A stretch of 61,349 nucleotides of DNA, filler included. It is 6 parts of 6 records of this genome, joined end to end, with 100 filler letters (N's around TTAATTAATTAA, not from the genome) between each part and the next. Parts side by side here need not be neighbours in the genome. Positions count along the whole stretch, not along the records: positions 14,923 to 35,835 come from SRR20825010_3801; 5 more parts are not named here. The stretch is one strand, 5' to 3'. Positions within the stretch are counted from its first letter, which is position 1. Every line of letters starts with the position of its first letter. The translations under genes and the position numbers were made by a program. Shown piece after piece: positions 16,670 to 35,741 of the stretch. The notes beneath the pieces are model-generated. The model did no database searches. It was given only the letters and a program-made list of their open reading frames with translations, and was not told where the DNA came from.

Positions 16670-16984
16670 TTATCCCCCTTGTTTGCATCGCCCGCGAATC
16701 AGGAGCCGATCCGGGGACAGGATGCTGTCGCTTTGCGAATAGACGCGCCGGTCAATTTCACCAAACCCGTTCGGGCACATGCCATAGCGCGCAACATCTT
16801 CGCGCATCCACCGTTCCCGATCTTCATCGGAGTACCCCAGAAGAACGGTTCCATCCCATACGAATTCGGTATCGCTGACCGGGGTGAAACGGGTGTGGTT
16901 TTGGCGGTCCGTGCTTTCACATGCCGTCATGGTCAATCCCCCGATGATCACTGCGGTGATCGCCATCCATCCGTGTTTTTTCAT
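16670..16984 (-). CDS. Predicted phage lipoprotein
   Basis: MKK + hydrophobic core + MTAC lipobox-like; GGAAGG upstream. Confidence 0.65.
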   Translation of the reverse strand: MKKHGWMAITAVIIGGLTMTACESTDRQNHTRFTPVSDTEFVWDGTVLLGYSDEDRERWMREDVARYGMCPNGFGEIDRRVYSQSDSILSPDRLLIRGRCKQGG

Positions 16985-17807
16985 TGCAACCTTCCTTGAC
17001 AATTATCCCGATCACAACAACGACCGGTCGTACATGGTCGCGCGCTGTTCGCGGATTGGCAAGGTGGCATCTGTCAAACCAGCTTTTGGGGATGGCGGTT
17101 TCGGCGATGGTGAAAATGTCGGGGCCGCTGCCATCCTCGGTATTGATGGCAATCACCTGGTCGCCGGGCCAGTAGGTGGTGGCGGTGCAGTCGGCGGTGA
17201 TATACTGCCCGTCAATCACGAATATCGCATGATCAAAGGGCTTTCTGTCATTGGCGGCGGGCAGGTGGCGAATGCCGTAATCCCGCGCCTGCTTGACGAT
17301 GCCTTTGGCGCGGTCCTGTTTCATCTGGGCGATGATCATGTCGCGGACCGGGTGGAAATGGGCCTGCAGCAAGGCGCTGGCGCGGGAATTGATTTCGCGC
17401 TGTTCGGCGCGGGTCGGGTGCCAGTTGCGCGACGCGGCCGGCAGGATCATTGGCATGCGCCGTTGCCGCCATGCGGTGAAAACCGTGATCACCTCGCGCC
17501 GGACGGCTTGCGCCCGGCTGGTTCTGGCAAACATGCAGATCAGTAAAGCCTGTTCTTCATTCAGCCAGTATTCCTTGACTTCCCGTGTGGCCCTTGACCC
17601 TATTTCGACCATCGCGCCACGGTGGCGCAGTGGTCCGAAGCCCTCAAGTTCTGCGGTGTTGCGTTCGATCAGTTTGCGGATATCGCGCGGGCGGGCCATG
17701 CCAAGGCATTCGCCCAGCCGTTCATCACGGATGCGGGGTTCGTCTTTAGCGATTGATGTATTCAGGTCTGACGCGGACAGAGTCCGGGCGTTGGTTGGTT
17801 CGCTCAT
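16917..17807 (-). CDS. Antirepressor-like protein 1 (Rha/Bro-like N-domain + shared C-terminal domain)
   Basis: EPRIRD..LG..LG.ARPRDIRKLI, EYWLNEEQALLICM..RT.RA; strong AAGGAGG SD before ATG 17807. Confidence 0.75.
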   Translation of the reverse strand: MSEPTNARTLSASDLNTSIAKDEPRIRDERLGECLGMARPRDIRKLIERNTAELEGFGPLRHRGAMVEIGSRATREVKEYWLNEEQALLICMFARTSRAQAVRREVITVFTAWRQRRMPMILPAASRNWHPTRAEQREINSRASALLQAHFHPVRDMIIAQMKQDRAKGIVKQARDYGIRHLPAANDRKPFDHAIFVIDGQYITADCTATTYWPGDQVIAINTEDGSGPDIFTIAETAIPKSWFDRCHLANPRTARDHVRPVVVVIGIIVKEGCNEKTRMDGDHRSDHRGIDHDGM

Positions 17808-17860
17808 GGCGACCTCCTTCTGATAGGGTATAACCCGATCACAGAGAGGCCAATCTCTGG

Positions 17861-17970
17861 TGATCGGACGTGCAGGATTGGCCTTACCGCCAGAAGGAGC
17901 GGCGCACCCGAAGGTGCTCCCACACGCCCGACCATAAGAAAACCGCGCATCAACAGGTTGGGCGCGGTTC
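17861..17970 (-). ncRNA. C4-type antisense RNA, cassette 1
   Basis: Long stem 17861-17876/17919-17934; cUUCGg hairpin 17904-17917; bulged seeds CUCCUUCUGG and GGCCAAUC complementary to sites both upstream (17976-17983, 17993-18000) and downstream (17814-17823, 17848-17855). Confidence 0.8.
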
Positions 17971-18030
17971 GAGCGCCTTCTGACAGACGGGAGACCAATC
18001 CCGGCCATGGATGCGTCCATGACGGCGGGA

Positions 18031-18059
18031 ATGTTACGCCCATCGATTTGCGCGGTCAA
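18031..18059 (-). promoter_or_regulatory. Sigma70-type promoter for C4 cassette 1
   Basis: TTGACC-N17-TAACAT on the minus strand. Confidence 0.7.
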
Positions 18060-18064
18060 GAATG

Positions 18065-18646
18065 TCATGCGGCGCTGCTTTCTTCACCGCTGGCGGCAAG
18101 TGCCGTGCGGTAACTGCCCGGTCGCCAAGACAGGATCGGTTTTGTTTCGGTCAGAATGTCATTGACCTTGGCGATGGCGTCGGCCAGTTCCGGTGCAACA
18201 TCCGACAGATACATGTCTTCGGGCAGGTAATCGTTCCAAATTTCATCGATATCAATGATGGGAGCGTATTCCGGTTCACAGATGACCAGCCGCAGGGTTT
18301 CGGCCCGCAGGTCGTCATTATCGGCAAGATGTTCGCGCAGTTCCTCTTCATCATTAAAGAACCGATCAAGCGTTTGGGAATAGACCATGCCGTCGTCCCA
18401 TTCGGCATAAGGCATCGCGTTGTAGCGTTGTTCCGCGTGCTTTGCCCGGCATTCATCGCAACATGTCCAGTTGCGCTGGTGCTCGTGTTTCCCGCATTCC
18501 TCGCAAAGCTTGTGGGTGCAGCCGTCGTATCGGGCGGTTCGTTCGTCATTGCCATAGAAGCGGCCGGTGGAACTGACCCAGCCGGTGACCTGCCGCAGGC
18601 TTGCGGCTTCCGCGCTGTGATACAGTATTTTCGTTTCGGTTTTCAT
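18065..18646 (-). CDS. Cys-rich hypothetical phage protein
   Basis: TGWVS..GRFYG, GCTHKLCEECG, TCCDEC; tight operon packing. Confidence 0.8.
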   Translation of the reverse strand: MKTETKILYHSAEAASLRQVTGWVSSTGRFYGNDERTARYDGCTHKLCEECGKHEHQRNWTCCDECRAKHAEQRYNAMPYAEWDDGMVYSQTLDRFFNDEEELREHLADNDDLRAETLRLVICEPEYAPIIDIDEIWNDYLPEDMYLSDVAPELADAIAKVNDILTETKPILSWRPGSYRTALAASGEESSAA

Positions 18647-18649
18647 TAC

Positions 18650-18934
18650 TCAATCCTCCCCGATAGCCGTGCAATCCAAGATTTCCCAGCGGGCGATGGA
18701 TGCGTAAATGTGGTCGTATCTCAGAAACTCGTCGAGATCGTGCGACGACTTGATATCGTTGAAGTGCCGGACGGCCTGATCCGCGAATGCGTTGGCAATT
18801 TCCGCCGTGCTATGGTACGCCAGATTGTGGAGTTCATCCGGCGTCATATCCACCTGCCGCGCAAGTTTCTCGCGGTTTCCAGGCTCAATGTCGTCGAGTT
18901 CGAGTGACAGGGTTATCGTAAGTTTGCGTTTCAT
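18650..18934 (-). CDS. Hypothetical phage protein
   Basis: ATGA overlap with the upstream gene. Confidence 0.7.
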   Translation of the reverse strand: MKRKLTITLSLELDDIEPGNREKLARQVDMTPDELHNLAYHSTAEIANAFADQAVRHFNDIKSSHDLDEFLRYDHIYASIARWEILDCTAIGED

Positions 18935-19614
18935 GCTGCAATCCTTTCAAGTGCCCAGCCGCCCCACTGGTCGGCGCAGGCGTCGGCCATGCCGGGAAAG
19001 AACCGGCTGCGTTCCTTTGCCCGTTCCGGGCCGGGTGGCATCCGGTGGACCCGGCACCATTTTTTCCATTCGTCGCTGCCGCGTTCGGGTTCTGGCAGTT
19101 TTTGGGTCGGTGTCAGGCACGGCAGGTTTTTGAGATACCAGCCGGTGTTTTTATATTCCGGGTGCCCGAAATGGTGGGGCTGCACCATCTGCGGGGCTGG
19201 CAGGTCATCGGGCATGTGGGCCTTTGCTATGTCGTGCATTTCCGGGTTCTCGATCGCGATGCGATCAACCGGCGCACGCCAGCAGGCCGTGAACAGGTCA
19301 ACCCCGTCCTTGAATTCCTGTTTCATGCTTTCCCATGTGCGACCGCGCGGCAGCTTTTTGGGTGGGGTCATGAAGCCCTCGCCCGAAAGCCAGCGCCGCC
19401 CGGCCCGGCAAAGGCGGGTGCAAGGCGGGTGGGCGACAATCAGCAAGTCCCAGCCGTCTGCCAGGATATCGCGAATGTCGCCCGTGATATGCTTGTTCGA
19501 TCGATCTTCGGCGGGAAGCAGATCGCACGACCATGCGTCGTGCCCGCGGGCAGCAAAGGCCCGGCGCACGGTGCCGGTAAACTCGCATCCTACGAGTACG
19601 CGCAGGGTTGTCAT
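18931..19614 (-). CDS. Short phage DNA cytosine-5 methyltransferase-like protein
   Basis: VLVGCEFTG, SCDLLP, AHPPCT (PC catalytic), IENP. Confidence 0.8.
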   Translation of the reverse strand: MTTLRVLVGCEFTGTVRRAFAARGHDAWSCDLLPAEDRSNKHITGDIRDILADGWDLLIVAHPPCTRLCRAGRRWLSGEGFMTPPKKLPRGRTWESMKQEFKDGVDLFTACWRAPVDRIAIENPEMHDIAKAHMPDDLPAPQMVQPHHFGHPEYKNTGWYLKNLPCLTPTQKLPEPERGSDEWKKWCRVHRMPPGPERAKERSRFFPGMADACADQWGGWALERIAA

Positions 19615-20138
19615 GCTGCCTGCTCCCGTTCTGCCAGCAGCAGATTAAGTTTTGCCTCGCTGATTTCTTCGCAGCCTTCGGGCACCGGCAGATCGGCGAT
19701 GATTTTCAACTGGTCCTTGACCGACGTTCCGAGCATGTTTTTGTCGGTCAGGAACAGGTAGAAAAGATCGTCCTTATAGCCAAGCTGGCAGCGGCAGGCC
19801 GTGTCGATACCCAGCCAAAGGGCGGGTTCGCTATTGCGGCGGTCATAGCCGGGGATGGGTGGCAGAATGCGAATTTCATCCCAGATATCCATGGCTGCTT
19901 TTTTTCGGCTGTCGCGTGAGGGGTGCCAGTATCCCTGCTTGCGGTCCCGTATCCATTCCGGGCCGGGTTTCCTTACTGCCGTGATGCCGATCAGCCGACC
20001 GTCAAGGCCGGACCAGAAACGGGTGCCGCCATATTTCTTGGCAAACTCGGTGGCGGCGTCAAAGCCGTATTCGTGCCGTGCGCGATAGTCGTTGGCCCTG
20101 TCGAGCATCGGCCCAGATTTGATCATGAAATAGCGCAT
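19611..20138 (-). CDS. Hypothetical phage protein
   Basis: TGATG/ATGA coupling on both sides; start MRYFMIK. Confidence 0.7.
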   Translation of the reverse strand: MRYFMIKSGPMLDRANDYRARHEYGFDAATEFAKKYGGTRFWSGLDGRLIGITAVRKPGPEWIRDRKQGYWHPSRDSRKKAAMDIWDEIRILPPIPGYDRRNSEPALWLGIDTACRCQLGYKDDLFYLFLTDKNMLGTSVKDQLKIIADLPVPEGCEEISEAKLNLLLAEREQAA

Positions 20139-20551
20139 CACGCATTCCCCCGCGCAATCCGGTCCGGGAAGGTGCATTGGGTGATGTGGACCCATGCGCT
20201 TTCGCGGTCTTTGGTGGTGGCGTGGAACTGGAAATCGACCAGGATGCGACCGCCGGGAAGGGCGGCAACGCAGGTGGCGGGGCGGATCATGCCGCGATGC
20301 TGGTGCGGGTGGCCTGCCGGGTCCATCACCACGACGTTAAGCCGTTCGCCCATGGTCGGCAGGGCGTTGTCGGCATGGTCGGCAAGGATTTTTGCCATGC
20401 GGGCGCGGCGGGGGTCGCACAGGATATCGTCGGGCGTGTGAAGGCGAAGCGGGCCTGGGGTGGTGTCGTTGGCTGCGTCGCGAAGGGCCGCGATCTGATC
20501 GTCGCTAAAGGCTGATGCGGCGATGGTGAAAGGCTGAAGTCTGGTAACCAT
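20138..20551 (-). CDS. Hypothetical phage protein
   Basis: AAGGA upstream; coupled to the next gene. Confidence 0.65.
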   Translation of the reverse strand: MVTRLQPFTIAASAFSDDQIAALRDAANDTTPGPLRLHTPDDILCDPRRARMAKILADHADNALPTMGERLNVVVMDPAGHPHQHRGMIRPATCVAALPGGRILVDFQFHATTKDRESAWVHITQCTFPDRIARGNA

Positions 20552-20654
20552 GGGGTCGGTTCCTTTTCTGACTGGCTGATCCTTGCGGCCTGCTGCCCGA
20601 TCGCAATCGCGATCAGGGCGCAGGCGGTGAATTTCGCAAGGGGCAGGATCGGGT

Positions 20655-21845
20655 TCATGCGGCGAAGGTGCCGGACTTCACCAATTCGCTTTCGGCGGTC
20701 CGGTTTTCGTTGGCGGATACGGTTGGAAAGGCGTTGTGTTCGACGCCGTCCAGCAGGCGTCCGGCGGCTTTTTTGCCGACCTTCTGGAATACGGCATGTG
20801 ATTCGCCGTCCGAAACAAATGACAACCCATCATTCCAATTGGGATCGCTTTCCATTTCGCTAGGAAACAGGTTGTGGCCGTCCACGTATGCATCATTTTG
20901 TGACAGCCAGAACGGAGCGTCGGCAGATTCCCATGGCAACCATGCGCCCCACTGCTTAAAGAAGAACGGCACGCTCGCCGCCTTGCATTGATCGCGTAGA
21001 GATCGCGCCCAGTCCGGGTGCATCGTGCGGGCCTTGTGGCCGCTTTCGCCGCCGCAGATGACCCAGTCGATGGTCGCGCCCTTGAAGGCTTCGTCATCTT
21101 CGATATCGAGACCTTCGTTATCGAGGCAATTGAAGCTCCATTCGCCGGTCGGGAGATCGGCAATGATAAGGTTATCCAGTTCCACAGGGCCAAGCAGCGG
21201 CTCCGCGCTGATAAAGCGCACCGCTGCCGGTGTGGTCAACAGGGTCGGGATGCGTTCAATGGCGGTTGCCTGATCCTCGGCACTGGTGCCGATCCAGACA
21301 TTCGGCAGGGGCAGATGAACCGCCAGCCACATCGAAGGATCTTCGCGGGTTCGTTCAAAGTGGATGCGCTGCGCGGCCCCTTCAATCATGGCATCGCGGA
21401 AACCTTCCAGCCTGCCACCGTCGTTATTGTCGATCGATGTCATGTATTGCCGGGTGGCTTCGATCCGTTTTGTCAGAACGATAAAGGTGTGCTGCGGGCA
21501 AAGGGCTGCGATGGCAAAGATATCGTCAATCCATTCGTCGCAGTGTCCCTCGTAAAACAGGTCCGTCATGCTGCACACAAAGATCGTGCGCGGTTTTTTC
21601 CACATCAAAGGCTGCCGGACCACGATAGCGTCAAGGAAGATTTCGACCTGATCGGCATCCTGTGCGGCATAGCGCACCGGGTTTTTGAACCGCTTCTGGA
21701 AGTCGGCGGCGTAACAGTTCTGGCAGCCTGCGCTGACTTTGGTGCAGAAATGGCCGGTGCCGCCGGTTGCCTTGTTCCGCGCCCGGATCGGGTTCCATGT
21801 CTCGCCCTTTGTGCCGGGGCGCTGGGTCCATTCTATTTTGGTCAT
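20655..21845 (-). CDS. Phage Gp37/Gp68 (DUF5131) family protein
   Basis: TKIEWT, TWNP, CTKVSAGCQNCYA, IFVCSMTDLF, LTKR, PNVWIG, SAEPLLG, WVICGGESG, PFFFKQWG. Confidence 0.92.
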   Translation of the reverse strand: MTKIEWTQRPGTKGETWNPIRARNKATGGTGHFCTKVSAGCQNCYAADFQKRFKNPVRYAAQDADQVEIFLDAIVVRQPLMWKKPRTIFVCSMTDLFYEGHCDEWIDDIFAIAALCPQHTFIVLTKRIEATRQYMTSIDNNDGGRLEGFRDAMIEGAAQRIHFERTREDPSMWLAVHLPLPNVWIGTSAEDQATAIERIPTLLTTPAAVRFISAEPLLGPVELDNLIIADLPTGEWSFNCLDNEGLDIEDDEAFKGATIDWVICGGESGHKARTMHPDWARSLRDQCKAASVPFFFKQWGAWLPWESADAPFWLSQNDAYVDGHNLFPSEMESDPNWNDGLSFVSDGESHAVFQKVGKKAAGRLLDGVEHNAFPTVSANENRTAESELVKSGTFAA

Positions 21846-21856
21846 GATGGTTCCTT

Positions 21857-22594
21857 TCACGCCGCCGCAATCAGCCGGGCCATGCGGAGGCTGTTGCCGG
21901 TCAGTTCGGTTGCGGCGGGCTGGGTGATGCCGATGGCGCGGTTCATCGCGTTGGCGATGCGGGTGGCGTAAAACAGGGTGGCATAGGGGCCGATCAGGGA
22001 ATCCATGCGGGTTGATCCCGGTTTGTGTTCGGCGCACCAGGCGATATGCACGGTTTCGCCTGCATCATTTGCCGCGTTGTCGGCGGTTGGCCGGGTGGTT
22101 TCGACGCAAAAGGCGATGCGCGACGGTGTGCAATCGCGGATCTGATGGGCCCTGAAGGTTTCGTGGCCGAACAGTATCCGGTCGATCTTCTTCTGCAGAA
22201 CCACGATATCGCTTGCGATCAGAAGCGGGTTGAAGCCCGCCCCGCATTCGGCGATCTGCTTGCGCCAGCGGGTGGCGTTGCTGATGACCAGGTTGATCGC
22301 TTTGGCTTTGTCACTTTTGAAATCATCTGGATAATCGCCAACGGTCGCCTCGTCGGCGAGGGCAAAGAAATCGCCCAGCGCACGGGTATGCGCGTTGCGA
22401 TCAGACACTTGATCCTGATGATTGCGCAGGCAATCAAGCTGATCAATCACGCTGGCCAGCCAGTCGGTTCTGGCAAGCTGTTCGCGGGCGGTTGCGCGAT
22501 CTTCATCGGATGCGCAACCCTGTTCATGGGCCGCCGCGTAGGCCAGAAAGTTCTGGCGCGCGACCTGATAGGCGGTTTCGTGTGGTTTGAACAT
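21857..22594 (-). CDS. Hypothetical phage protein
   Basis: AAAGGA before ATG 22594; 245 aa. Confidence 0.7.
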   Translation of the reverse strand: MFKPHETAYQVARQNFLAYAAAHEQGCASDEDRATAREQLARTDWLASVIDQLDCLRNHQDQVSDRNAHTRALGDFFALADEATVGDYPDDFKSDKAKAINLVISNATRWRKQIAECGAGFNPLLIASDIVVLQKKIDRILFGHETFRAHQIRDCTPSRIAFCVETTRPTADNAANDAGETVHIAWCAEHKPGSTRMDSLIGPYATLFYATRIANAMNRAIGITQPAATELTGNSLRMARLIAAA

Positions 22595-22610
22595 GGGGGT
22601 TCCTTTCAGG

Positions 22611-23165
22611 TCATGCGGCGTTGGCGACCGGCAGGTCGAGGGCCTTGTTAAGGTCCTGGGTGATGGTCGCGGGGAGTTGAGCCTTGGCCGGTTCTGGCGG
22701 CAGGAAGGGTTCAACCTCGGGCCAGATTTCAAGCAGGCGCTTGGATGAACCAACGCTTTTCAAAACGGCTTCGGCCTTGGCTGCTGCCTGCGATTTCCGT
22801 TCCTTCAAATCCTTGCGGGCGTTTTCCAGTGCGGTCCATTCAAGGGTAAAGGCGTGTTGCGCGTCGTACGCTGTGCCGCGCATGGTCGATCCGCTATAGC
22901 GGTCGATATAGAAGCAGCGCCGTTCGCTGGAAAATTTCAACGTGTCCCGGCACCCGGCGAAGTTGACAAAGGTATCGCGCGTGACCGGCAAAGCGCCGTC
23001 CGGCATGCTGTTCATCAGTTTGCGTGTCGTCGGTCCGTAATAGTCGCAATAGAGTTTGTCGGCGAGCGCGGTTTCCTGCTGCTCAATGGCTTCCTGATCG
23101 GCTGCGAATCGGTGCTTTATCAGGGCTTTGATGATGTTGTCACGGATTTCGTTTGAGAGTTTCAT
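22611..23165 (-). CDS. Nmad5-like (nucleotide-modification-associated domain 5) protein
   Basis: MKLSNEIRDNI N-terminus and L.SV.S.KRLLEIWPE...LP...LN.AL.LP C-terminus, recalled as the Nmad5 pattern. Confidence 0.7.
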   Translation of the reverse strand: MKLSNEIRDNIIKALIKHRFAADQEAIEQQETALADKLYCDYYGPTTRKLMNSMPDGALPVTRDTFVNFAGCRDTLKFSSERRCFYIDRYSGSTMRGTAYDAQHAFTLEWTALENARKDLKERKSQAAAKAEAVLKSVGSSKRLLEIWPEVEPFLPPEPAKAQLPATITQDLNKALDLPVANAA

Positions 23166-23295
23166 GGTTGGTTCCAATCTGGTCTATGGAAACGTCACTT
23201 AGCGCAATTCTGCGGTGAGTGAATTGGTTGTGGCGAAGATCACCACCGGCGCAATTTTGCGCCGGTGCTCCCCTTAAAATTGAGGGCAGTGCGGG

Positions 23296-24084
23296 TCATT
23301 TAACCTCCGCAATGGCGGGTTTGATGATGGTGGCAAGGCGGGTCAGACCCTTGGCCGTGATGCGCACCTGTTCGGTCACCTTTTCCGAGCCGTCGCCGCG
23401 CCAGACCGTTGTCGTCTTGTGTTCCAGAAGGCCCTGCGCGGTTTTCGACTGGTAGCCAAGCCATGCGGCGGAGCCGGGCCGCTTATAGGTCCAGCCATTT
23501 TGCGCCAGCCATGCAAACAGGTCCTTGGGCCGCATCTGCAGGACCTTGGCGGCGTTGGTGATGCACATGGTGCCATCGGCCTGCGCGATGCGGTCGAGTG
23601 CATCCAGCTTTGGTTTGGCTTCCTCGATCTGATGTTCGAGTGCGATGACCTTTTCGGAATAGGTCAGAAGCAGGCCGCGCAATGCGGTCGGATCATTAAG
23701 CTGCTGGTGGATGTCGGTCGGGCTGGTGGTGGTGCCTTCCATCCGTTCGCGAACAACGGTGTTGCACCACATATGGAATTCCGGCGACAGGTACTTGGCA
23801 TAGGCCATGCCGACCTGCCAGTGGGCTGCCGTCGTTCCGGTTCTGCCCTTGCCGATCTCTAAAAGGTGGGAAATTTCCACATTTAAACTGTCAGCCAAGA
23901 ACAAGCAGAATTTTTGCGCATCTGCCGAACGAAGCCATTCCGCCGGTTTACGGGATGGGTCGCTGTCCGCAGCGCGCCACATATCTGTCAGGTTCAGTTT
24001 GTCGTCATTAACCCGAATCGCCGCCCCGTTGTAAGACAGTGTGGTAGCGGAGTTGTCATTGAAGGCTTGAAGTTGTGCATTCAT
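23296..24084 (-). CDS. Antirepressor: KilA-N + ANT/KilAC domains
   Basis: LNLTDMWRA, P.EWLR, YAKYLSPEFH (KilA-N); AKPK..A.DRIA.ADG, AAKVL, DLFAWL, QVRITAKGL (KilAC). Confidence 0.92.
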   Translation of the reverse strand: MNAQLQAFNDNSATTLSYNGAAIRVNDDKLNLTDMWRAADSDPSRKPAEWLRSADAQKFCLFLADSLNVEISHLLEIGKGRTGTTAAHWQVGMAYAKYLSPEFHMWCNTVVRERMEGTTTSPTDIHQQLNDPTALRGLLLTYSEKVIALEHQIEEAKPKLDALDRIAQADGTMCITNAAKVLQMRPKDLFAWLAQNGWTYKRPGSAAWLGYQSKTAQGLLEHKTTTVWRGDGSEKVTEQVRITAKGLTRLATIIKPAIAEVK

Positions 24085-24236
24085 CGCAAAAGCGCCCTTT
24101 GCTGTATTGAACGGGCAAAGGGTGTCGTTAATATTCGTAATTGTCAACGATTAATTAGGATAAAATAACGAATAATAACGGCAGAAAACTGCGCTCAGTG
24201 TCGGAATATCCGATCTTGACTATCTGTTGAGCTAGT

Positions 24237-24261
24237 AAAAGGTCGGGGAATCCGACCTTTT
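24237..24261. terminator. Terminator hairpin at the repressor stop codon
   Basis: AAAAGGTCGG-GGAAT-CCGACCTTTT. Confidence 0.75.
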
Positions 24262-25084: not shown

Positions 25085-25345
25085 ATGTCGATTGATGCAA
25101 ATCTGAACCGTATCCGGGCATGGCGGCATCACAAGGGCTTTGCGATTTATCGACTGGCCACGATGGCTGGTGTCAATGAGGCCGCAATTCGCAAGATTGA
25201 CAGCCCGGAATGGAACCCGACCGCCAATACAATTCGCAAATTTGAGGCCGTTATCCCCGCCGATTTCATGATGGCGGCGAATGATACCGGTGCCCCGTCG
25301 GCCGCCAAGGCCGACCGGGGTGACGATCAGACCAAGGCGGCCTAG
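25085..25345 (+). CDS. Cro-like HTH protein
   Basis: LATMAGVNEAAIR...WNPTANTIRK; divergent from the repressor. Confidence 0.85.
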   Translation: MSIDANLNRIRAWRHHKGFAIYRLATMAGVNEAAIRKIDSPEWNPTANTIRKFEAVIPADFMMAANDTGAPSAAKADRGDDQTKAA

Positions 25346-25392: not shown

Positions 25393-25893
25393 ATGGCGAA
25401 TACACCCCCAATTGCCCATGAAGCGGTACAGTCGGTTTTTACCGGCGCGTTCCGCCGCCATGTCGGCACCTATGATGCGGAAAACAAGGCGATCACGCTT
25501 AAGGCTTTGTCAAAGGGTGGTGTGATCAAGCCCCGGACGCTTGAATGTTATCGCGATGGTGAAAGCCTGCCGGGCATGGTCAATTTCCTGACGATTGCAA
25601 ATTTTCTGCCCGCCACGTTTTCCAATGAAATCCTTGCGCTGGCCGGGCTTGGCAAGGCGGAAAAGCTTTCGCCCGGTGCTGTCACCATTCATCAGGCGAT
25701 GGCGCATGCCGCGGAGGTTCTTGCACAACATTCGCAGCATATGGCCGATGGCATCCTTGACCATCGCGAGGCCAAGCAGGACCTTGAGGCGATGATCAAT
25801 CTGCTGGAAACCCTGCAGAATGCCGTCGCGGTCATCAGCAATGTTCATGCATTTCCATCATCGCGATCCAAGCTGGTAGGGGGTGCGGCATGA
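25393..25893 (+). CDS. CII-like regulator
   Basis: Position after cro; HTH-like N-half; ADGILDHRE motif. Confidence 0.65.
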   Translation: MANTPPIAHEAVQSVFTGAFRRHVGTYDAENKAITLKALSKGGVIKPRTLECYRDGESLPGMVNFLTIANFLPATFSNEILALAGLGKAEKLSPGAVTIHQAMAHAAEVLAQHSQHMADGILDHREAKQDLEAMINLLETLQNAVAVISNVHAFPSSRSKLVGGAA

Positions 25894-28430: not shown

Positions 28431-28510
28431 TTTGATGTGTCAAAACCTTGTTTTCCGCTTGGTGTGCTGCCCGGTCTTCGATCCATTTCTGTTCATGCGA
28501 GGGTGACGAC

Positions 28511-28903
28511 ATGACAAATCCCGTGACCGATATCGAATCAGCCGCCGCGCGCGGATCCGCGCCGCGCCCTGTGACCAGCCCGCTTGACCTGATCGGGCTG
28601 TTGCGGATTGCGGCAAGCAGGCATTCCGCCCAGCCGCCGCACGAAAAGGCATTGAATGTGCTGCGCACCGCAATCGACCGGCGGGCGGAATATATCAATG
28701 GCCGACATGCCTGCCGGGTTTCCGGTGCGGTGATATCCGTGCCCGCGATGGTTGATCTTGCCAATGCGGTTCTGGAAAAGGCCGGTCTGCATGATTTGCG
28801 GCTACCTTATCCCGGTGCCAAATTCTCGCTGGCGGAACATTGCCAGGCGGCAAATGACAACCGCCGCGCCCGGTCGTCATTCGATACGGTCGGGGGTGTG
28901 TGA
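28511..28903 (+). CDS. Hypothetical phage protein
   Basis: GAGGG upstream; coupled to the next gene. Confidence 0.7.
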   Translation: MTNPVTDIESAAARGSAPRPVTSPLDLIGLLRIAASRHSAQPPHEKALNVLRTAIDRRAEYINGRHACRVSGAVISVPAMVDLANAVLEKAGLHDLRLPYPGAKFSLAEHCQAANDNRRARSSFDTVGGV

Positions 28904-29574
28904 TGGTTGCGGAAAAGAAGCAGAAGCCCGCAAAGCAGAGTTTCGCGCAAGTGATGGAAATCACGCTGCGCGAAGCGGCCAATGAAAACCGCCCGGTACC
29001 GGATGTTGTCGACAACCTGATCACCGATCTGACGGTCGCGGGCTTTGCGGTGCGCCGGACTTACGAGCGCGTCGATTATCACCGGGATATCATCGTTCTG
29101 TATGAGCCGGGGCAGGCGGGCGTTTCCGGGGCCAGCCATCATGATGCGATGATGGTTCTGGAAGCGGGCAGCGCGGTCGATCTGCGCGGTGAACATGGCT
29201 GGCTGGTGGTGTGGTCCGAACAGGGGCGCAAGCGTTCCGCCTGGTTCGATGCCGAGGGCAAAAGCCCGATCCTGACCGATTACCGGGTGTCCAATCCGCG
29301 CACGCCGGTCGCCGGTGCGGTCGCGGAACTCAAGCGTGAGGTGGCGGGGCGCGCCAGCAAGGCCACCCGTTTCGGCCTCGACGAAACGCAGCCGGGGCAA
29401 CCGGACGATAATGCTGCCCGGTTGGGCGAAGAAATCGGCGATGTGCTGGTCATGATTGAACTGGTAAAGCGGCACTGCGGCGTAACGGATGCAAGCATAC
29501 AGGTCGGTCTTGAGCGCAAGCCGCGCCAGCTTCGCAAATATATGCAGCATATCCCAGAAGGGCTGGAACTGTGA
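28900..29574 (+). CDS. Protein with C-terminal MazG-like (NTP pyrophosphohydrolase) domain
   Basis: ASKATRFG...N.ARLGEEIGDVLVMIEL pattern; the first acidic motif looks eroded. Confidence 0.6.
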   Translation: MMVAEKKQKPAKQSFAQVMEITLREAANENRPVPDVVDNLITDLTVAGFAVRRTYERVDYHRDIIVLYEPGQAGVSGASHHDAMMVLEAGSAVDLRGEHGWLVVWSEQGRKRSAWFDAEGKSPILTDYRVSNPRTPVAGAVAELKREVAGRASKATRFGLDETQPGQPDDNAARLGEEIGDVLVMIELVKRHCGVTDASIQVGLERKPRQLRKYMQHIPEGLEL

Positions 29575-29968
29575 TGACGGTACATTTTGTCGATGAACTG
29601 ACTGCGCTATCGTTCGAAGAATTGCGGATGCTGAGATTGGCGGAAAATGTCGGTCATAAGCGTCTGCGGAACATCGCCGACGACATCGCGGATATCAATC
29701 CTAAAGCCTGCCTGCGCGCCAGCACCCCGCGTGTTGTTCTTTGTCATTGTGCCAAGTGTCGGGGGCTGTGATGTCCAGATATCCGATAGCCTTTAGTCCG
29801 CGTGTGCTGCATCTGTCCGGTGATTTTGGCAGGTGCATCCTGATGCCGGTCCTGTTCGGGCCGCTGCTGGATTTCTCGGCCCGTCCCGATTTCGCGCATG
29901 TCGCCACGGTGACGGTCAAATCAACAGGCGTTCGGATACTGTTGCTGCGCAGGATCGGGGGTTGGTGA
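29571..29968 (+). CDS. Two small coupled hypothetical ORFs (29571-29771, 29771-29968)
   Basis: Consecutive TGATG overlaps. Confidence 0.5.
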
Positions 29969-30306
29969 TGTGTGATTGTCCGAAGCATGTCCGGGTCGGG
30001 ACGTATGAGAATCAGGTGACGTTCGATGTGCCCGCCCATATGGCGGAGTATCGCGCCCGGCGGATTGCGGCGGGGCTTTCGGGCCTCATCTGCATTGACC
30101 GTTGCCTGGTCGATGAAGTGCTGGCGCTGTGGATGGCGGGTATTCGCACGAATGGATCGTGCTGCGGGCATAACCATGTGCCGCCGATCATCAGCGTGTT
30201 TCCCGAATATATCCCGGCCATGAAGGCGATGGGATACCAGGTGCAGTTCAACCCGTCCCGGCCCTATGCCGAGGATGGCTTTATTCCCAAGACTGTGAGG
30301 GCGTGA
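29968..30306 (+). CDS. Hypothetical phage protein with ID.C...T.GSCCGH motif
   Basis: TGATG-coupled start MCDCPK. Confidence 0.7.
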   Translation: MCDCPKHVRVGTYENQVTFDVPAHMAEYRARRIAAGLSGLICIDRCLVDEVLALWMAGIRTNGSCCGHNHVPPIISVFPEYIPAMKAMGYQVQFNPSRPYAEDGFIPKTVRA

Positions 30307-30311
30307 TGCTC

Positions 30312-30905
30312 TCACAGCGACGCGAGGTTTCCCGGCAGCCGGTTATTCTTGCCCAGTTCGGCTATCTCCTGACGGGATCCAATGACCTTGATCTGGATGC
30401 TGCTCGACACGTTGCCAAGGCCCTTGGTGATGGCGAAAAATCCACGATAGGCGGCGTCGGCTGCAAGGATATCAGACGAAAACGACTGGTTGCCAAGATA
30501 GCAGGCCAGTTCTTTCATGTGGATAACCGCTTTCTGGGCCGTGATGATGCCGGTTACAAAGGTTTCTGTCTCGGTTTCGTCGTCGGCATGGGTAAAAGTG
30601 AAGGCGGCATTTTGCACGGTCGGTTTTTGCTGCGGCGCAAGGGATGCCTCGACGCGTTGCGCTTCGCCGAACAGGTGTGTCGCAGCAATCAGCCAAGCGA
30701 TACCGGGGCTTTTACATCCATTGATCACGAGGCTTGGCGGGTTGGTCCAGACCAGCCTGCCGCCAGAGGCGGTTATGGCTTCTGGTGTGCAAACGGCGGC
30801 GGGATATGTGGTGTCGTCTGGCAGTTCGCTGTTTTCCTCGTGGTAGATTTCAATATCCATCGTGATCACGTTTCTATCCCCCGGTTGTGTGTGGATGGTG
30901 ATCAT
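30312..30905 (-). CDS. Hypothetical protein oriented against the operon (moron-like)
   Basis: 197-aa ORF with natural composition; start may be the Met at MDIEIY. Confidence 0.6.
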   Translation of the reverse strand: MITIHTQPGDRNVITMDIEIYHEENSELPDDTTYPAAVCTPEAITASGGRLVWTNPPSLVINGCKSPGIAWLIAATHLFGEAQRVEASLAPQQKPTVQNAAFTFTHADDETETETFVTGIITAQKAVIHMKELACYLGNQSFSSDILAADAAYRGFFAITKGLGNVSSSIQIKVIGSRQEIAELGKNNRLPGNLASL

Positions 30906-30932
30906 GCGCCGAAGGTTGCATGCACGTCAATA

Positions 30933-30961
30933 TTGACTATCGCGGGCAGGGGGCGTAAGGT
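30933..30961 (+). promoter_or_regulatory. Sigma70-type promoter for C4 cassette 2
   Basis: TTGACT-N17-TAAGGT. Confidence 0.7.
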
Positions 30962-31029
30962 AACGCCCATCGGTGGGAAAAATCCGCCGTGGGGGCCTTC
31001 AAACTCCCTGTTCAAGACGGTTAGCCGTC

Positions 31030-31160
31030 ACGTCAGTTACGGCTATTTTTGTGCCCGGAATCCGGGTGCATCTTCTCGCTTAGGGCGGGAGGGCGGTGAA
31101 TATAAGACCCTTCGGGGGAATAAACCCGCCTGCCTCTTGACAGGTTTGAAGCCTCCCGCC
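31030..31160 (+). ncRNA. C4-type antisense RNA, cassette 2
   Basis: Stem GGCGGGAGG 31084-31092/CCTCCCGCC 31152-31160; cUUCGg hairpin; seeds CCUCUUGA and GUUUGAAG complementary to 30997-31017 and to 31173-31179/31208-31215. Confidence 0.8.
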
Positions 31161-31223
31161 ACCAGCGCGGTCCTTCAAAGCTTCGTTGGTGGTCTGTTTA
31201 ACAGCCATCAAGAGGGCTTTGAC

Positions 31224-31988
31224 ATGACCAAGCATGAAACTGCGCGCGATCTGCCCGCGACGCTGACTTTCCAGAATACTCAAATTTCCATTATTGATCG
31301 TGGCGGTGTGCCTTGGGTGACCGGCCCTGATATTGCGCGGGCTTTAGGTTTTGCGGATCCGCGCAAGCTGTCGAACATGTTCAATCGACACAAGGACGAA
31401 TTTACCGATGATATGGCCCATGTCCTCAAATTGAGGACGGGGCGGCAGGCGGCTCCCGCCAGCGTCCGGATATTCAGTCCGCGCGGCGCGCAATTGATCG
31501 CCATGCTGGCCAAGACGCCACGGGCGAAGGATTTCCGGCGCTGGGTTCTCGATGTGCTGGAAGGGCTGGCACCCGCGCCCGGTAACATGGCCGATGATGC
31601 GGATCTGCGCCGCAAGATCGTGGCGGAGGTCACGCAGCAGGTTATGGCATCGATCACGCCGCATCTGCCGGTGGCTCCTGCGCCGCAGCCCGCCCTGCCA
31701 TTGGCGCGGGGTGATCTGCCGCGCCTGACCGAGGGGCAGGCCCTGTTTATGATCGAGGGGCGGCAGGTGATTGTCGATACCCGCGATGCGGAGCCAGAGC
31801 GCGGCGAGCGTGCGGTTGTGATCCGGGTCGAGGATGGCGCAGGCCCGATTGTGGTCACCATCCTGGGCGATCCGCCGATCAAAACATGGTTCGACCGCTG
31901 CAAGATTTATGATTCCGGCGTCAAATGGCTGATCCCCGTCGGGGTCGTCATCGGGCGCGTTGTTTGGGAGGGTGATTATCGTGGTTGA
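31224..31988 (+). CDS. Antirepressor-like protein 2 (Bro-N + shared C-terminal domain)
   Basis: LTFQN, PWVTGPDIARALGF, RHKDEF, RIFSPRGA, AKDFRRWVLDVL. Confidence 0.88.
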   Translation: MTKHETARDLPATLTFQNTQISIIDRGGVPWVTGPDIARALGFADPRKLSNMFNRHKDEFTDDMAHVLKLRTGRQAAPASVRIFSPRGAQLIAMLAKTPRAKDFRRWVLDVLEGLAPAPGNMADDADLRRKIVAEVTQQVMASITPHLPVAPAPQPALPLARGDLPRLTEGQALFMIEGRQVIVDTRDAEPERGERAVVIRVEDGAGPIVVTILGDPPIKTWFDRCKIYDSGVKWLIPVGVVIGRVVWEGDYRG

Positions 31989-32394
31989 TACTGCCAAAAA
32001 ATCAGAGTGCTGGGTATGTGATGGTGCGCCGCCAGCGATCTTTCGTGGCAAATGCGAAAAGCACGATGTCTGTGACCAATGCGGAACGCCGCGCGCGCAG
32101 CTTGCGGAAATCCCATGGGGAACGCATGGCGGGTTCCTTTGCCAGCCGTGCGACCGGAAAAACAAGGCGGAACTTATTGCCGGTTATGACAGCGATGACC
32201 ACGACGATAGCGAGTGGCGCGATTGTCTGAAATGCCCGAATTGCGGCAAAGAAAGCCACCCGGAAATGGAAGATTATCGGGGTGAGGGCGAGGAATACGA
32301 AACCAATTGCCCGCATTGCGATCTGCCGATGAAGGTCGTTACGACCTATACGGTTGAATGGTCAACAGCCAAGGCTGTGAAAGGGGGTGCGTGA
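31981..32394 (+). CDS. Multi-CxxC zinc-finger phage protein
   Basis: CWVC, CEKH, CDQC, CQPC, CPNC, CPHC. Confidence 0.75.
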   Translation: MVDTAKKSECWVCDGAPPAIFRGKCEKHDVCDQCGTPRAQLAEIPWGTHGGFLCQPCDRKNKAELIAGYDSDDHDDSEWRDCLKCPNCGKESHPEMEDYRGEGEEYETNCPHCDLPMKVVTTYTVEWSTAKAVKGGA

Positions 32395-32807
32395 TGCAAT
32401 CCAACGAGGAACTGGCCCGTTACATTGCGGATGCGACCGGATATCTCAAGGGGTCGTTTCGATATACCAAGGTATTCCTACGCGCCTGCCGGGTGCTTGA
32501 CGTGCTGAATGTCGGGCGGGAAATGGATAGTGCGCCCACGGATGGCACGACGATCCTGTTGCAAACGTCGGATTTCGGCTGGGTCGAAGGATTCTGGAAT
32601 GTCCATGTCGCCAATTTCTACAAGTCGCAAGCCTGTTGTGCCTGCTATGACCCGGACAACGCGCAGGGAGACTGGTGTGCGGTGATGCCGCTTAATCGCG
32701 AGGGTGGCGACCAGCGGCTTTATTGTGGTTTCACGCCGCAACGCTGGTTGCCATGCGCTGAAAAGTGGATCGATCCGGATTGGGCGTGGTCCGGGGATGG
32801 TGATTGA
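32394..32807 (+). CDS. Hypothetical phage protein (DUF551-like)
   Basis: MDSAPTDGTTILL...PQRWLP pattern. Confidence 0.6.
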   Translation: MQSNEELARYIADATGYLKGSFRYTKVFLRACRVLDVLNVGREMDSAPTDGTTILLQTSDFGWVEGFWNVHVANFYKSQACCACYDPDNAQGDWCAVMPLNREGGDQRLYCGFTPQRWLPCAEKWIDPDWAWSGDGD

Positions 32808-33973
32808 TGGCTGAAACCCTCAAACACACCCTTGCGGACATGGCTGATGCCATCAAGGCGCGGTATCGGCCGTCCGAGGTGGTGGAGCCGTTTGTAAAGC
32901 TGAAACGTCATGGGGTGGAGCGGGTCGGATTGTGCCCGTTCCACACCGAAAAATCGGGCAGCTTTACGGTCAATGACCGCAAGGGGATTATCCATTGTTT
33001 CGGGTGTGGCTGGTCGGGTGATCTGATCGGGTTTTATGCCGAAATCCGCAATATCAAGCCGGTCGAGGCGATCCGGATTCTGGCGGCCGACGCCGGGATC
33101 GATGACCCTGTGGCACGCGAAAGGCTCGCACGGCAATCGCGCGAACAGGCGGAACGTCGCGAACGGGAACAGGCCAAGGCCAAGCAAAGCGATGCGGTGA
33201 AATTGCGCAATATCTTTGCCGCCCGCACCCCGATGGTGGGCAGTGCCGTCGAAACCTACCTGCGGTCGCGCAAATGCTGGCCGGGGGTGGAAATCCCGAC
33301 AATCGGGTGCCTGAATGATTATCCTTACTGGCATGACGGCAAGATCATCGGGCGGTTTCCGGTGATGGTGGCGGTGATGCTGATGCCGGATCGCAGTTTT
33401 GCCGGGCTGCATATGACATATTTGCGGGCCGATGGCGGCGGCAAGGCGGAGGTCATCTGCCCGGATACGGGCGAGGTGTTGCCGTCCAAAAAGGTGCGCA
33501 CCGCGATCCCGCTTATCAGCGGGTGCGGCATTTACCTGACGCCATTGCGGGCGCATATAGGGGTGGCGGAGGGTATTGAAAATGCCCTGACATGGATGAT
33601 CCGGCGGCCTGAATGGGGGTTTGTTGCGGCGTATAGTCTTGACAATCTTGCCGGTCATGGCCTGGGCGAGGGGAAGCCAAGGCGCGATGTGCCAAAGCGG
33701 CGCTATCCCTCCAAGGAACCGGCCATGAGCCAGCCGGGATATCGTCCGCCATGGGGCGATGAAATGCTGGCATGGCGGGATGCGGAGGCGGTCCGCGACA
33801 TATCGGTTCTGGCCGATAATGACAGCAAGGATCCGATTGCCGCCCGGTGCCTGTTTGAGCGCGCACGGCGCAAATTTTCAAATATCGGATACCGGTCGCG
33901 GGTGATTTTCCCGCCTGCCGGAAAAGACTGGAATGACGTGATCAGGGGTGAAATGCATGAAAAAGAAGCTTGA
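32807..33973 (+). CDS. Phage DNA primase (CHC2 zinc finger + Toprim)
   Basis: GLCPFHTEKSGSF, HCFGCG, YLRSR, GLHMTYL, VAEGIENAL, LADND, GKDWND. Confidence 0.92.
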   Translation: MAETLKHTLADMADAIKARYRPSEVVEPFVKLKRHGVERVGLCPFHTEKSGSFTVNDRKGIIHCFGCGWSGDLIGFYAEIRNIKPVEAIRILAADAGIDDPVARERLARQSREQAERREREQAKAKQSDAVKLRNIFAARTPMVGSAVETYLRSRKCWPGVEIPTIGCLNDYPYWHDGKIIGRFPVMVAVMLMPDRSFAGLHMTYLRADGGGKAEVICPDTGEVLPSKKVRTAIPLISGCGIYLTPLRAHIGVAEGIENALTWMIRRPEWGFVAAYSLDNLAGHGLGEGKPRRDVPKRRYPSKEPAMSQPGYRPPWGDEMLAWRDAEAVRDISVLADNDSKDPIAARCLFERARRKFSNIGYRSRVIFPPAGKDWNDVIRGEMHEKEA

Positions 33974-35741
33974 TGCCGCGAACGAAAATGACGCATTCGA
34001 CCCGATTGACGATACCGATGCCGATACGCCGTTTATCGACCCGGATACGGATAATGCATCGATGCTGGCTGATGCCGGGCCGTGCCCGGTGCAGTGCCTG
34101 GGCCATAATGACGGGCGGTTTTATTTTGTCACGCCATCCGGGCAGTTGCGCGATCTGGTGGCGAAAAGCCTTGGCAACCGGCAGGAAATCACCGCCCTGA
34201 TGGAGCAAAAAGCCAAATGGGCCGGGCGGGCCTTTCCGAAGTTTAACAAGGATGGTGACTATGTCGGGCCGGATTATCCGCGCACCGGTGAATGGCTGAT
34301 CATGGAATGCGCCAAAAAGGGGATTTTCAGCCCGGACAAGGTGCGCGGGCTTGGCGTGTGGAAAGACGTGCGCGGCGGTTTGATCGTGCATTGCGGTGAC
34401 AAGCTGATGCTGTCAAGTGGGGCGAAATCGATTGATGCGGGTGCGGCCCTTGACGATGGCTGGGTCTATCCGGCACAGCCGCCCTTGCCCGCGCAGTTGC
34501 GCCCGGCGATGTTCGAACCGGCCAATACCGCCCAGATGAAGATGGTCTATGACCATATCAAAAGCTGGAACTTCCTTGAGCCTTCGGGGGCGCAAATCTG
34601 CCTTGGCATCATGGGCCTGATCTGTGTTTGCGGGGCGCTGGATCGTCGTCCGACGCTGTGGCTTACGGGTGATGCGGGCATGGGCAAGACGGAGTTGTTG
34701 AAGCTTCTGACGCAGCCGATTGGCGGGCTTGATTACACATTGCGGTCATCGGATGCATCGGCAGCGTGGGCGCGCGCCGCACTCAAGGGCGCGGCAAGGC
34801 CGATCTTCCTTGATGAAATGGAGCCGGGGCCACGCGCAGCGGCGGCAATGGAACTGGCAAGGCTTGGCTTTTCATCCGATCAGGCAGGCGTTGGCCGTGC
34901 CAGTGCCGATCAGAAAGCGATTTTGCAGCGCATCACCGCGCAGTTTGTCTTCGGATCGATCCTGCATCCCGAACCCAAACCGCAGGATCAGACCCGCATT
35001 CACTTTGTCGAAATGACCCGCCTGACGCCAAATGCGCAGCAGATCGCGGAATTCGAGGCGCGGGAAGCCGCCATTCGTGACCTTGGCCCGCGCATCTGGT
35101 CACGCATGATTTTGGGCTATTCCCGGTTTCTGTCGAACATGCTGGTCTATCGCGGGGTTCTGGGTGCGTCGTCCTATTCCCGGCGCATGACGGACAAGTT
35201 TGCGCCGGTTCTGGCGGCGGTCGAGACGCTTTTGCATGATGAAGTGATCGACCCGGCGGTTGCCGCCGATCAGCTTTCGGAATGGGGGCTTGATACGCCG
35301 GAGGTCAATGACAGCGAATCAGATGAATGCCTGAACCATCTGATGTCCTGTCAGGTGGATACTTGGCGCGGCGGGGATCGACCGACGGTCGGGCAGATGA
35401 TCGAGGATATTCTTGCCAGCATGAATGGCGCTGTCCACGAATACGATGATGGCAAGCGCATGGCCGAAAGGATACTGCCGGCCTATGGACTGCGGCTTGC
35501 CAAGGACAATGACAACGCGCCCGGTGAATTCAAGTGGCTTCTGGTGGCGAACAAGCACACGGCCCTTGCCAAGCTGTTCCGTGATACACGCTGGCAGGGT
35601 GGGGTGCACCGGCAGGCGCTATCGCGCATACCCGGCGCGATCAACGGGGATAAGTCCGGGCGATTTGGCGGGGGTATTTCACGTTTCGTCAAAATCCCGC
35701 TGGACATTCTCAAGGGGGGCGGTCAGGATGGTGATCCGTAA
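33957..35741 (+). CDS. Primase-associated P-loop ATPase/helicase
   Basis: Walker A GDAGMGKT, Walker B IFLDEME; overlaps the primase 3' end. Confidence 0.8.
   Translation: MKKKLDAANENDAFDPIDDTDADTPFIDPDTDNASMLADAGPCPVQCLGHNDGRFYFVTPSGQLRDLVAKSLGNRQEITALMEQKAKWAGRAFPKFNKDGDYVGPDYPRTGEWLIMECAKKGIFSPDKVRGLGVWKDVRGGLIVHCGDKLMLSSGAKSIDAGAALDDGWVYPAQPPLPAQLRPAMFEPANTAQMKMVYDHIKSWNFLEPSGAQICLGIMGLICVCGALDRRPTLWLTGDAGMGKTELLKLLTQPIGGLDYTLRSSDASAAWARAALKGAARPIFLDEMEPGPRAAAAMELARLGFSSDQAGVGRASADQKAILQRITAQFVFGSILHPEPKPQDQTRIHFVEMTRLTPNAQQIAEFEAREAAIRDLGPRIWSRMILGYSRFLSNMLVYRGVLGASSYSRRMTDKFAPVLAAVETLLHDEVIDPAVAADQLSEWGLDTPEVNDSESDECLNHLMSCQVDTWRGGDRPTVGQMIEDILASMNGAVHEYDDGKRMAERILPAYGLRLAKDNDNAPGEFKWLLVANKHTALAKLFRDTRWQGGVHRQALSRIPGAINGDKSGRFGGGISRFVKIPLDILKGGGQDGDP

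Follow-up and report, generated by a model that had tools for sequence, protein, structure and literature searches.

Encoded copies of both ends of the tmRNA tag in early proteins of a Thalassospira-type prophage: a candidate degron read by SspB and ClpXP

A terminal Ala-Ala on a flexible tail is the degradation signal of the ssrA-like "C-motif 1" substrates of ClpX and of Caulobacter CtrA. The tag that E. coli adds from transfer-messenger RNA (tmRNA; tag sequence in Table 1 of PMC8138137) carries AANDENY, which binds the adaptor SspB, and a terminal LAA, which binds ClpX (PMC10659297). Engineered tags of the DAS+4 type pair a weakened ClpX site with an SspB site, making degradation adaptor-dependent (PMC8138137), whilst phage substrates of ClpXP include lambda O, recognised through an N-terminal signal, and MuA, recognised through a C-terminal RRKKAI (Table 1 of PMC8138137). 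Ends resembling the ssrA tag are already known on a few phage switch proteins, with ssrA-like tags described on Int and Rep of mycobacteriophages whose immunity depends on integration (Broussard et al. 2013, as cited in PMC9635641). Here, we analyse a 61,349-nucleotide stretch of DNA (the window), whose prophage contig (14923..35835) carries the early region of a temperate phage, dormant in a marine alphaproteobacterium of Thalassospira type. Two short elements recur in the proteins of this phage, a head motif AAN[DE] and a C-terminal Ala-Ala (AA), and these occur above chance, are selected at the level of the peptide, have been gained repeatedly, are biased towards early genes, and match the tmRNA tag of the host lineage. 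We suggest, at a rough probability of 0.45, that the early non-virion proteins carry encoded copies of both functional ends of the host tag, and that these would serve as a degron for ClpXP with SspB as its adaptor; that the copies are bound by SspB, that ClpXP then breaks the proteins down, and that this has a part in timing is what we infer.

The prophage contig matches G001, a 45,614-bp provirus record (CheckV 97%), at 100% and 99.98% identity, and our counts use the 67 genes and 13,706 residues called in that record. AAN[DE] occurs ten times in these proteins compared with 0.86 expected, a count that none of 1000 within-protein shuffles reached (mean 0.91, maximum 6), whilst the control xAN[DE], in which x is not Ala, occurs 7 times with 6.44 expected. 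The strongest 4-mer outlier is AAND, with 8 copies where a zero-order null predicts 0.49 and a first-order null 1.09, and a bias in composition or dipeptides is ruled out both by this first-order value and by the shuffles. Read in six frames, all ten matches in G001 and all eight in its diverged relative G159 lie inside called frames, which make up 15% of six-frame codons; the motif codons differ at synonymous sites among copies, with the Ala, Asn, and Asp codons also differing between orthologues. Because the matches lie in coding frames and the synonymous codons vary, AAN[DE] is a feature of the peptide and not a DNA word. Conservation of the DNA, a concern raised in the initial annotation of this contig, is likewise contradicted by varied stop codons and by diverged relatives that retain the features.

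The initial annotation also proposed a count of AAN[DE] in prophage and host proteomes, and the enrichment seen in G001 is absent from the host relative. Across 800 kb of a Thalassospira genome (G003, contig C1, 1-800000; 678 called genes, 235,972 residues), which is a relative and not the host itself, the motif occurs 15 times with ~11 expected. Sixty-six loci of other bacteria encoding DUF5131, a family present in the prophage, contain 15 copies with 13.2 expected, ruling out a general trait of alphaproteobacterial prophages or of DUF5131 neighbourhoods, and the sole exception among the DUF5131 loci is L002, a related Thalassospira prophage with 4 copies against 0.26 expected. In 12 of 29 distinct contexts, a number of which are orthologous, Asn comes directly after the motif, as in the tag head AANDN.

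Five related proviruses (G156 to G160) were compared with G001. The near-identical G156 and G157 contain 7 and 6 copies of AAN[DE], with 0.81 expected in each. The diverged G159, with a Cro 64% identical to that of G001, contains 8 compared with 0.64, and AAND is again the top 4-mer outlier under both zero- and first-order nulls, whilst G160 contains 4 compared with 0.70, its top outlier being PAND with five copies. In orthologue alignments the core [A/P/G/V/N]-A-N-[D/E] is retained, with changed flanks, in six early families, namely Cro, the proteins of 130, 148, and 137 amino acids (aa), the family of the gene at 16917, and the 594-aa protein. Six of the eight copies in G159 lie in proteins or at positions that lack a copy in G001, so the motif has been gained repeatedly; one G159 protein bearing it, at the N-terminus, is a primase.

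Eight of the 32 early proteins of G001 end in Ala-Ala, compared with none of the 35 late proteins and 22 of 678 (3.2%) in the Thalassospira control (Fisher test, early proteins against host relative, p = 1.6e-5). When 397 phage proteins are grouped into 188 families (BLASTP 1e-5, 60% coverage), AA leads the C-terminal dipeptides of the family representatives, with 25 of 188 ahead of GA with 5 (Fisher test against the host control, p = 1e-6). Amongst the 97 early families, 24 have Ala-Ala ends and 12 the head motif, compared with 7 (p = 0.0016 for the Ala-Ala ends) and 3 of the 91 late families. The frequency of Ala shows no rise over positions -12 to -3 (0.119 vs 0.114 overall). The eight [AS]AN[DE] motifs and the same number of Ala-Ala ends (18065, 18931, 19611, 20655, 21857, 22611, Cro, and 25393-25893) listed in the initial annotation are all present in their open reading frames (ORFs), and the case for them is stronger than that annotation supposed. 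Both features are indeed concentrated in the early arm, but to speak of "the early proteome" overstates the case, as about a quarter of its proteins end in Ala-Ala and 7 or 8 bear the motif. In L021, another prophage region (Thalassospira genome G004, 2159-13085), 12 of 29 called genes end in Ala-Ala, without AAN[DE].

Six of the eight ends in the window read GCN GCA TGA, those of Cro (GCG GCC TAG) and 21857 (GCG GCG TGA) being different, which is what would be expected if the ends had no function and were by-products of coupled gene junctions, composed of a ribosome site, a GC-rich spacer, and ATGA, with AAN[DE] arising by chance, composition, or shared ancestry. Ala-Ala ends are however equally frequent without a start overlap (14/102) and where the stop overlaps or abuts the next start (11/86), and no gene begins at two of the six GCATGA ends. 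The equal rates are the decisive control: ATGA overlap is not the source of the ends, and the caution that they merely coincide with GCATGA gene ends does not hold. The Ala-Ala ends of the host relative are themselves ~3 times more frequent than composition predicts (22 against 7.7, or 17.6 expected with end-position Ala frequencies), yet only 1 of its 55 genes ending ...A-TGA has AA. At the junction after 25393-25893, GGTGCG is kept in the DNA while the peptide end changes, whereas in the Cro family the stop and Ala codons change and AA stays. Nor do by-products of junctions account for AAN[DE], which is frame-specific, the top 4-mer outlier, beyond the reach of the shuffles, and found anew in non-orthologous proteins. 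An origin without function is therefore largely excluded by these controls, and we regard it as very improbable. Nevertheless, the final Ala codon is GCA more often than general usage would predict, making up 12 of the 32 Ala-Ala ends classed as non-overlapping compared with 18% of all Ala codons, and some DNA-level or mis-classed overlap effect remains.

Clear ATGA start overlaps among the eight ends of the window occur only at 18931, 19611, and 25393, with 18065 a possible fourth. The genes after 22611 and 21857 start 17 and 11 nucleotides (nt) downstream, behind a AAAGGAAC ribosome site, and these two consecutive junctions (22595-22613 and 21846-21859) share a layout of Ala-Ala, TGA, AAAGGAAC, 3-5 nt, and ATG. 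The ATG overlapping the stop of the DUF5131 gene opens an ORF (20326-20658) that conflicts with ORF 20138-20551, which is conserved and was preferred.

Both elements come together in a small number of proteins. A tag-like tail, for which we required AA-COOH and a head motif inside the final 32 residues, was found for 6 of the 188 phage families and for none of the 678 proteins of the host relative, with most motif copies lying elsewhere in the protein. A 115-aa protein of G159 and G160 ends in AANDTEPQRGAA-COOH, 12 residues compared with the 13 of the host's tag, and further tag-like tails are PANDTEKKETAA on a 620-aa protein of G160, AANDTEGDESKQEGSAA in G159, and AANDSAPDQPKTETAA in L002, with the tail of the L021 Cro, PANDQGPDREEAA, listed among them. 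The window's own examples are Cro and the DUF5131 protein. Cro, an 86-aa Cro-like helix-turn-helix (HTH) protein (25085..25345, plus strand; phrog_7241, E = 2e-6), contains MAANDTG, with AAND at 25274-25285, and Ala-Ala codons at 25337-25342 before a TAG stop. The DUF5131 protein (20655..21845 within ORF 20655-22037, minus strand; 396 aa from ATG 21845) contains VSANENR, with SANE at 20706-20717 and Ala-Ala at 20658-20663. The initial annotation correctly placed two-part tails near the C-terminus of these two proteins, but the spacings it gave, X15 and X13, are to be read as AAND-X16-KAA in Cro and SANEN-X12-FAA in the DUF5131 protein. The SANENR...FAA tail is found in close relatives only, with Thalassospira DUF5131 homologues ending in AAA or DAA at 4 loci and in S or C at 5 loci.

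With around ten copies of the motif in each genome, many of them not close to an AA end, and with these copies concentrated in early proteins (the family counts of 12/97 early and 3/91 late noted above), the head motifs might instead act as decoys, occupying SspB early in infection or induction and thereby slowing the removal of tagged or SspB-delivered host proteins, or shielding phage proteins. Such titration seems quite improbable to us, as a motif coupled to AA-COOH on a flexible tail, at a spacing like that of the tag, points to delivery and not to blocking, and we know of no benefit that blocking SspB would bring. Loss of SspB is moreover described as giving no apparent phenotype in bacteria (PMC10659297).

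The Ala-Ala end is best followed in the Cro family. Amongst ten close homologues, the AA end and N66 are invariant and A65 and D67 near-invariant, with the rest of the tail variable. The ends read GCG GCC TAG, GCG GCT TGA, GCG GCG TAA, and GCG GCC TGA at different loci, without a start overlap; as the initial annotation stated, the AA of the window's Cro is not part of an ATGA overlap. Because stop and Ala codons vary while AA stays, the end is kept by selection on the peptide and not on the DNA. In an AlphaFold2 model of Cro, helices extend to residue 66 and residues 69-86 have a predicted local distance difference test (pLDDT) score below 50, which places the Ala-Ala on a tail predicted to be exposed and unstructured.

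A profile search with Cro over 1.84 billion representatives extends this to a widespread family of short, Cro-like HTH proteins with a W-N-P-T...I-P-x-[DE]-F core, a variable tail, and an E-A-A end in many lineages, some members of which are named "aMBF1" in their sources. Amongst the best 150 matches, 54 end in AA, and amongst the 127 of these with no more than 115 aa, AA ends 49, followed by AE with 7. Beyond the conserved I-P-x-[DE]-F, the tail is 7-41 residues long, and E precedes AA in 22 of the 49. Tails with AN[DE] number 9 out of the 127 and belong without exception to the Thalassospira subgroup. When genomes were searched class-wide, 17 of 401 encoded the Cro family, and amongst the six strongest loci, which were inspected, 2 end in AA.

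The host contigs of the window share 70-79% identity with genomes of Thalassospira type, and close protein relatives bear the name Thalassospira in their source records. Four of five genomes of this type encode the tmRNA tag (A)ANDNNAPVAVAA, in which ANDNNAPVAVAA is added after the charging Ala, and the tag of the fifth ends in AAAA; the genomes bearing (A)ANDNNAPVAVAA include G152, the closest relative found for the host contigs. All five (G002-G005 and G152; loci L155-L159) have sspB (PF04386, above the cut-off) beside ssrA, and the two genes lie on the same strand in both genomes checked (G002 and G003). The encoded SspB is homologous to alphaproteobacterial SspB proteins of solved structure (PDB 2NYS, 2QAS, and 2QAZ). 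A comparison with the host tmRNA tag, as the initial annotation advised, thus shows the phage head motif and Ala-Ala to match the two ends of (A)ANDNNAPVAVAA in the closest host relatives.

The same motifs are seen in Rhizobium phage 16-3, a named, isolated, and culturable phage of another alphaproteobacterial host, analysed from bases 1-50000 of its GenBank record. Fifteen six-frame matches to [AP]AN[DE] are present, 12 of which read [AP]ANDN, with 11 of those in annotated coding-sequence frames. With our own gene caller, [AP]ANDN occurs 10 times compared with 0.017 expected, always outside the virion arm, and AA ends 9 of 58 non-virion proteins and 1 of 22 virion proteins. The only AA end of the virion arm belongs to the portal protein (2202-3392; L182), which has the tag-like end ...PPTANDNQEDEAEAA.

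The occurrence of this motif in phage 16-3, which is unrelated, also counts against a partner other than SspB. The Ala-Ala may be a real, selected protease signal whilst [A/P]AN[D/E] is a short linear motif for something else, encoded by the phage or, SspB apart, by the host, in which case its resemblance to the tag head would be a coincidence or would matter only in part. This would fit the many motifs that lie at N-termini or internally, far from an AA end, as well as the small share of families with a tag-like tail (6/188), the rarity of AN[DE] in Cro tails compared with AA (9 against 49 of 127), and a sister phage, G158, in which AA ends 7 of 61 proteins without enrichment of the motif (AAN[DE] 1 vs 0.66 expected). 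On the other hand, the motif reproduces the first 4-5 residues of the tag, the match extending to the following Asn in the 12 of 29 contexts given above, and to our knowledge SspB is the only reader of the tag-head sequence (from E. coli data; PMC10659297). A different partner is, in our view, unlikely.

In the reading we prefer, in which the phage proteins mimic the tag, the head element [A/P]-A-N-[D/E], with N or T frequently the next residue, would copy the part of the tag head bound by SspB in E. coli, and the C-terminal Ala-Ala the part bound by ClpX; both are presented in a disordered tail by Cro, DUF5131, and a number of sister-phage proteins. ClpXP, and possibly also ClpAP or FtsH, would engage the Ala-Ala, whilst the head would tether the protein to SspB and so raise its delivery. 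This would shorten the lifetimes of Cro and of the proteins for replication and DNA modification, and tie them to the load on the host protease. A broader proposal, which we hold to be doubtful, is that a lineage of temperate phages evolved mimicry of both halves of the tag across its proteome, repeatedly gaining new copies in unrelated early proteins, so that SspB would act as a hub that sets the lifetimes of Cro and of replication and modification proteins, senses the host's load of products from stalled ribosomes, and couples lysis-lysogeny and replication to translational stress.

Several observations weigh against tag mimicry, in addition to the over-use of GCA. Many motif copies are N-terminal or internal and thus outside C-terminal tails. 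The residue before the Ala-Ala is mostly polar or small (E, K, and D in the Cro family; G, K, and D across phage families), unlike the L or V of real tags and unlike the non-polar antepenultimate residue of an ssrA-like C-motif 1 degron, and recognition by ClpX may therefore be weak. Beyond the lack of enrichment in G158, the motifs of three late proteins, the 245-aa protein, and KilA-N/ANT lack conservation, and orthologues of the 25393-25893 protein lack AA, ending in AGAQ in G159 and RAGA in G160 at an ATGA or TGATG junction. Tag and SspB are read from relatives whose host genes have the 70-79% identity given above; G001, G156, and G157 are near-duplicates; and the gene sets come from our own codon-score dynamic-programming caller and not a standard one, although it recovered the PHROG-supported genes.

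Of the early genes on the plus strand, the one at 28448..28903 encodes a protein of 130-151 aa with QAANDNR and the end GGV, its AANDN (28847-28858) lying 18 residues from the C-terminus. All four diverged orthologues have [A/G/S]ANDN, with variable flanks and changed synonymous codons, and the family has one database relative only. The next ORF (28900..29574) has EAANENR, with AANEN at 28975-28986 in an N-terminal part that corresponds to the 148-aa protein of G001, and five orthologues, including that of L002, have [A/V]AN[D/E]N. The primase-associated protein (33948..35741; 594-597 aa; phrog_21086) has DAANEND, its AANEN occupying residues 7-11 from ATG 33957 (33975-33986), and the motif is retained between different flanks in G160. 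The 166-aa protein 3' of Cro (25393..25893) ends in GGAA (25885-25890), its stop overlapping the next start as ATGA; GAA is the end in 7 of 7 database homologues, and given the G159 and G160 orthologues it is ambiguous whether the peptide is selected or the junction DNA constrained. The label "CII-like" given to this gene has no basis in Pfam or PHROG families.

On the minus strand, the Rha/Ant-like protein (16917..18068; Pfam/PHROG) has an internal PAANDRK, with AAND at 17247-17258, and its orthologues in G156, G159, and G160 have [A/P]AND. Its C-terminal part is paralogous (~26% identity, one BLAST family) to that of the BRO/Ant-like protein (30303-31988), and of the two only the former retains [A/P]AND, the motif being absent from the paralogue group. 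The 137-aa protein (20138..20551) has DAANDTT near the N-terminus, with AAND at 20465-20476 and PAND at the aligned position in the G159 and G160 orthologues. The 245-aa protein (21857..22594 within ORF 21857-22753) has NAANDAG, with AAND at 22064-22075, and ends in IAAA (21860-21865) without a start overlap; the G156/G157 orthologue has lost the motif and retained the AAA end. The Nmad5-domain protein (22611..23177; Pfam) ends in NAA (22614-22619) 17 nt before the next gene, and its orthologues end in KAA, read as GCC GCC TGA, the AA being the same and the codon changed. Ala-Ala ends read as GCN GCA TGA are also found on the phrog_11053 protein (18065-18646), whose G159 orthologue ends in DTAA after a different tail, the DNA methyltransferase (18931-19614), and an early protein at 19611-20195. 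The final tripeptides of the window's eight proteins are SAA, IAA, QAA, FAA, AAA, NAA, KAA, and GAA.

The window consists of six contigs separated by paired 44-N blocks at 14823-14922, 35836-35935, 43241-43340, 51024-51123, and 57029-57128, and genes flanking a block, such as those of the prophage and the lipoate genes at 36002-37753, are possibly not genomic neighbours. The prophage contig begins at its left end with a tyrosine integrase (15045-16487; Pfam/PHROG annotation), followed by the early, regulatory, and replication arm. A leftward block contains the Rha/Ant-like protein, phrog_11053, the DNA methyltransferase, DUF5131, Nmad5, and KilA-N/ANT; a CI-like HTH repressor then faces the 86-aa Cro, and a rightward block contains a methyltransferase, the BRO/Ant-like protein, a primase, and the phrog_21086 primase-associated protein (Pfam and PHROG). 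The virion arm is missing from the contig and present in G001. Window 15132-29346 aligns with G001 45614-31400 at 100% identity, and window 29338-35835 with G001 30929-24432 at 99.98%. Approximately 470 bp of G001 (30929-31400) are thus absent at window ~29338-29346, through either a real deletion or assembly collapse, and this gap fuses the 148-aa ORF and a 128-aa MazG-like ORF into the 224-aa ORF at 28900-29574. The GenBank phage collection gave no nucleotide match to the prophage and no protein match to Cro. Elsewhere in the window, a low-GC island (9942-11480; 0.43 vs ~0.55 around it) contains a 361-aa ORF without a Pfam family at E <= 1e-5.

What appears to be new is the copying of an adaptor-binding head over around ten unrelated early proteins per genome, repeatedly gained, and Creative Commons articles in PMC and bioRxiv, as distinct from subscription journals, contained no paper that we could find on copies of the tag head in phage proteins. 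If these motifs bind SspB, they would provide phages with a general and tunable route to protein lifetimes through a host adaptor, would represent a natural class of SspB substrates, and may link ribosome stalling with phage decisions. As the culturable phage 16-3 shows the same motifs, the idea is directly testable.

Of the known systems, the native tmRNA tag is the nearest, with an A-A-N-D-(E/N) head for SspB and a terminal Ala-Ala for ClpX (PMC8138137, PMC10659297), and phage tails such as AANDTEPQRGAA are of about equal length. The tag is however added by trans-translation, whilst the phage sequence is encoded in the gene; the phage spacer extends from 6 to ~25 residues, the residue before the AA is polar and not L or V, and the phage head also occurs alone, at the N-terminus or internally. 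The C-motif 1 substrates and CtrA share the terminal Ala-Ala, but these are single host proteins, whereas the phage ending is carried by about a quarter of the early proteins and by 39% of the Cro-like family, and comes with a copy of the adaptor-binding head. Lambda O and MuA are similarly replication and transposition proteins placed under ClpXP by terminal peptides, much as the primase-associated protein here and a primase of G159 bear an N-terminal motif, but the recognition sequences differ, and we know of no SspB-type head in either.

Tags of the DAS+4 type resemble the phage tails in combining a weak terminal signal with an upstream SspB element and an extended spacer, differing in being a synthetic design. 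The phage ends EAA, KAA, DAA, and GAA look like weakened forms of LAA or VAA, and it is from this likeness that we infer them to be weak ClpX signals. The mycobacteriophages with integration-dependent immunity offer the closest parallel in use, with hard-coded, ssrA-like C-terminal tags on switch proteins allowing host proteolysis of the ClpXP type to set lysis-lysogeny (PMC9635641). In contrast, the integrase of the phage described here ends in ...VRRVG and its CI-like repressor in ...IYPA, so neither is tagged; the proteins that carry the tag-like elements are Cro and the replication and modification proteins, and there is no attP inside the repressor gene. Mycobacteria are moreover described as lacking SspB (PMC8138137), so that no head motif is involved there, whilst the phage described here has, beside its Ala-Ala ends, a head motif that SspB may read.

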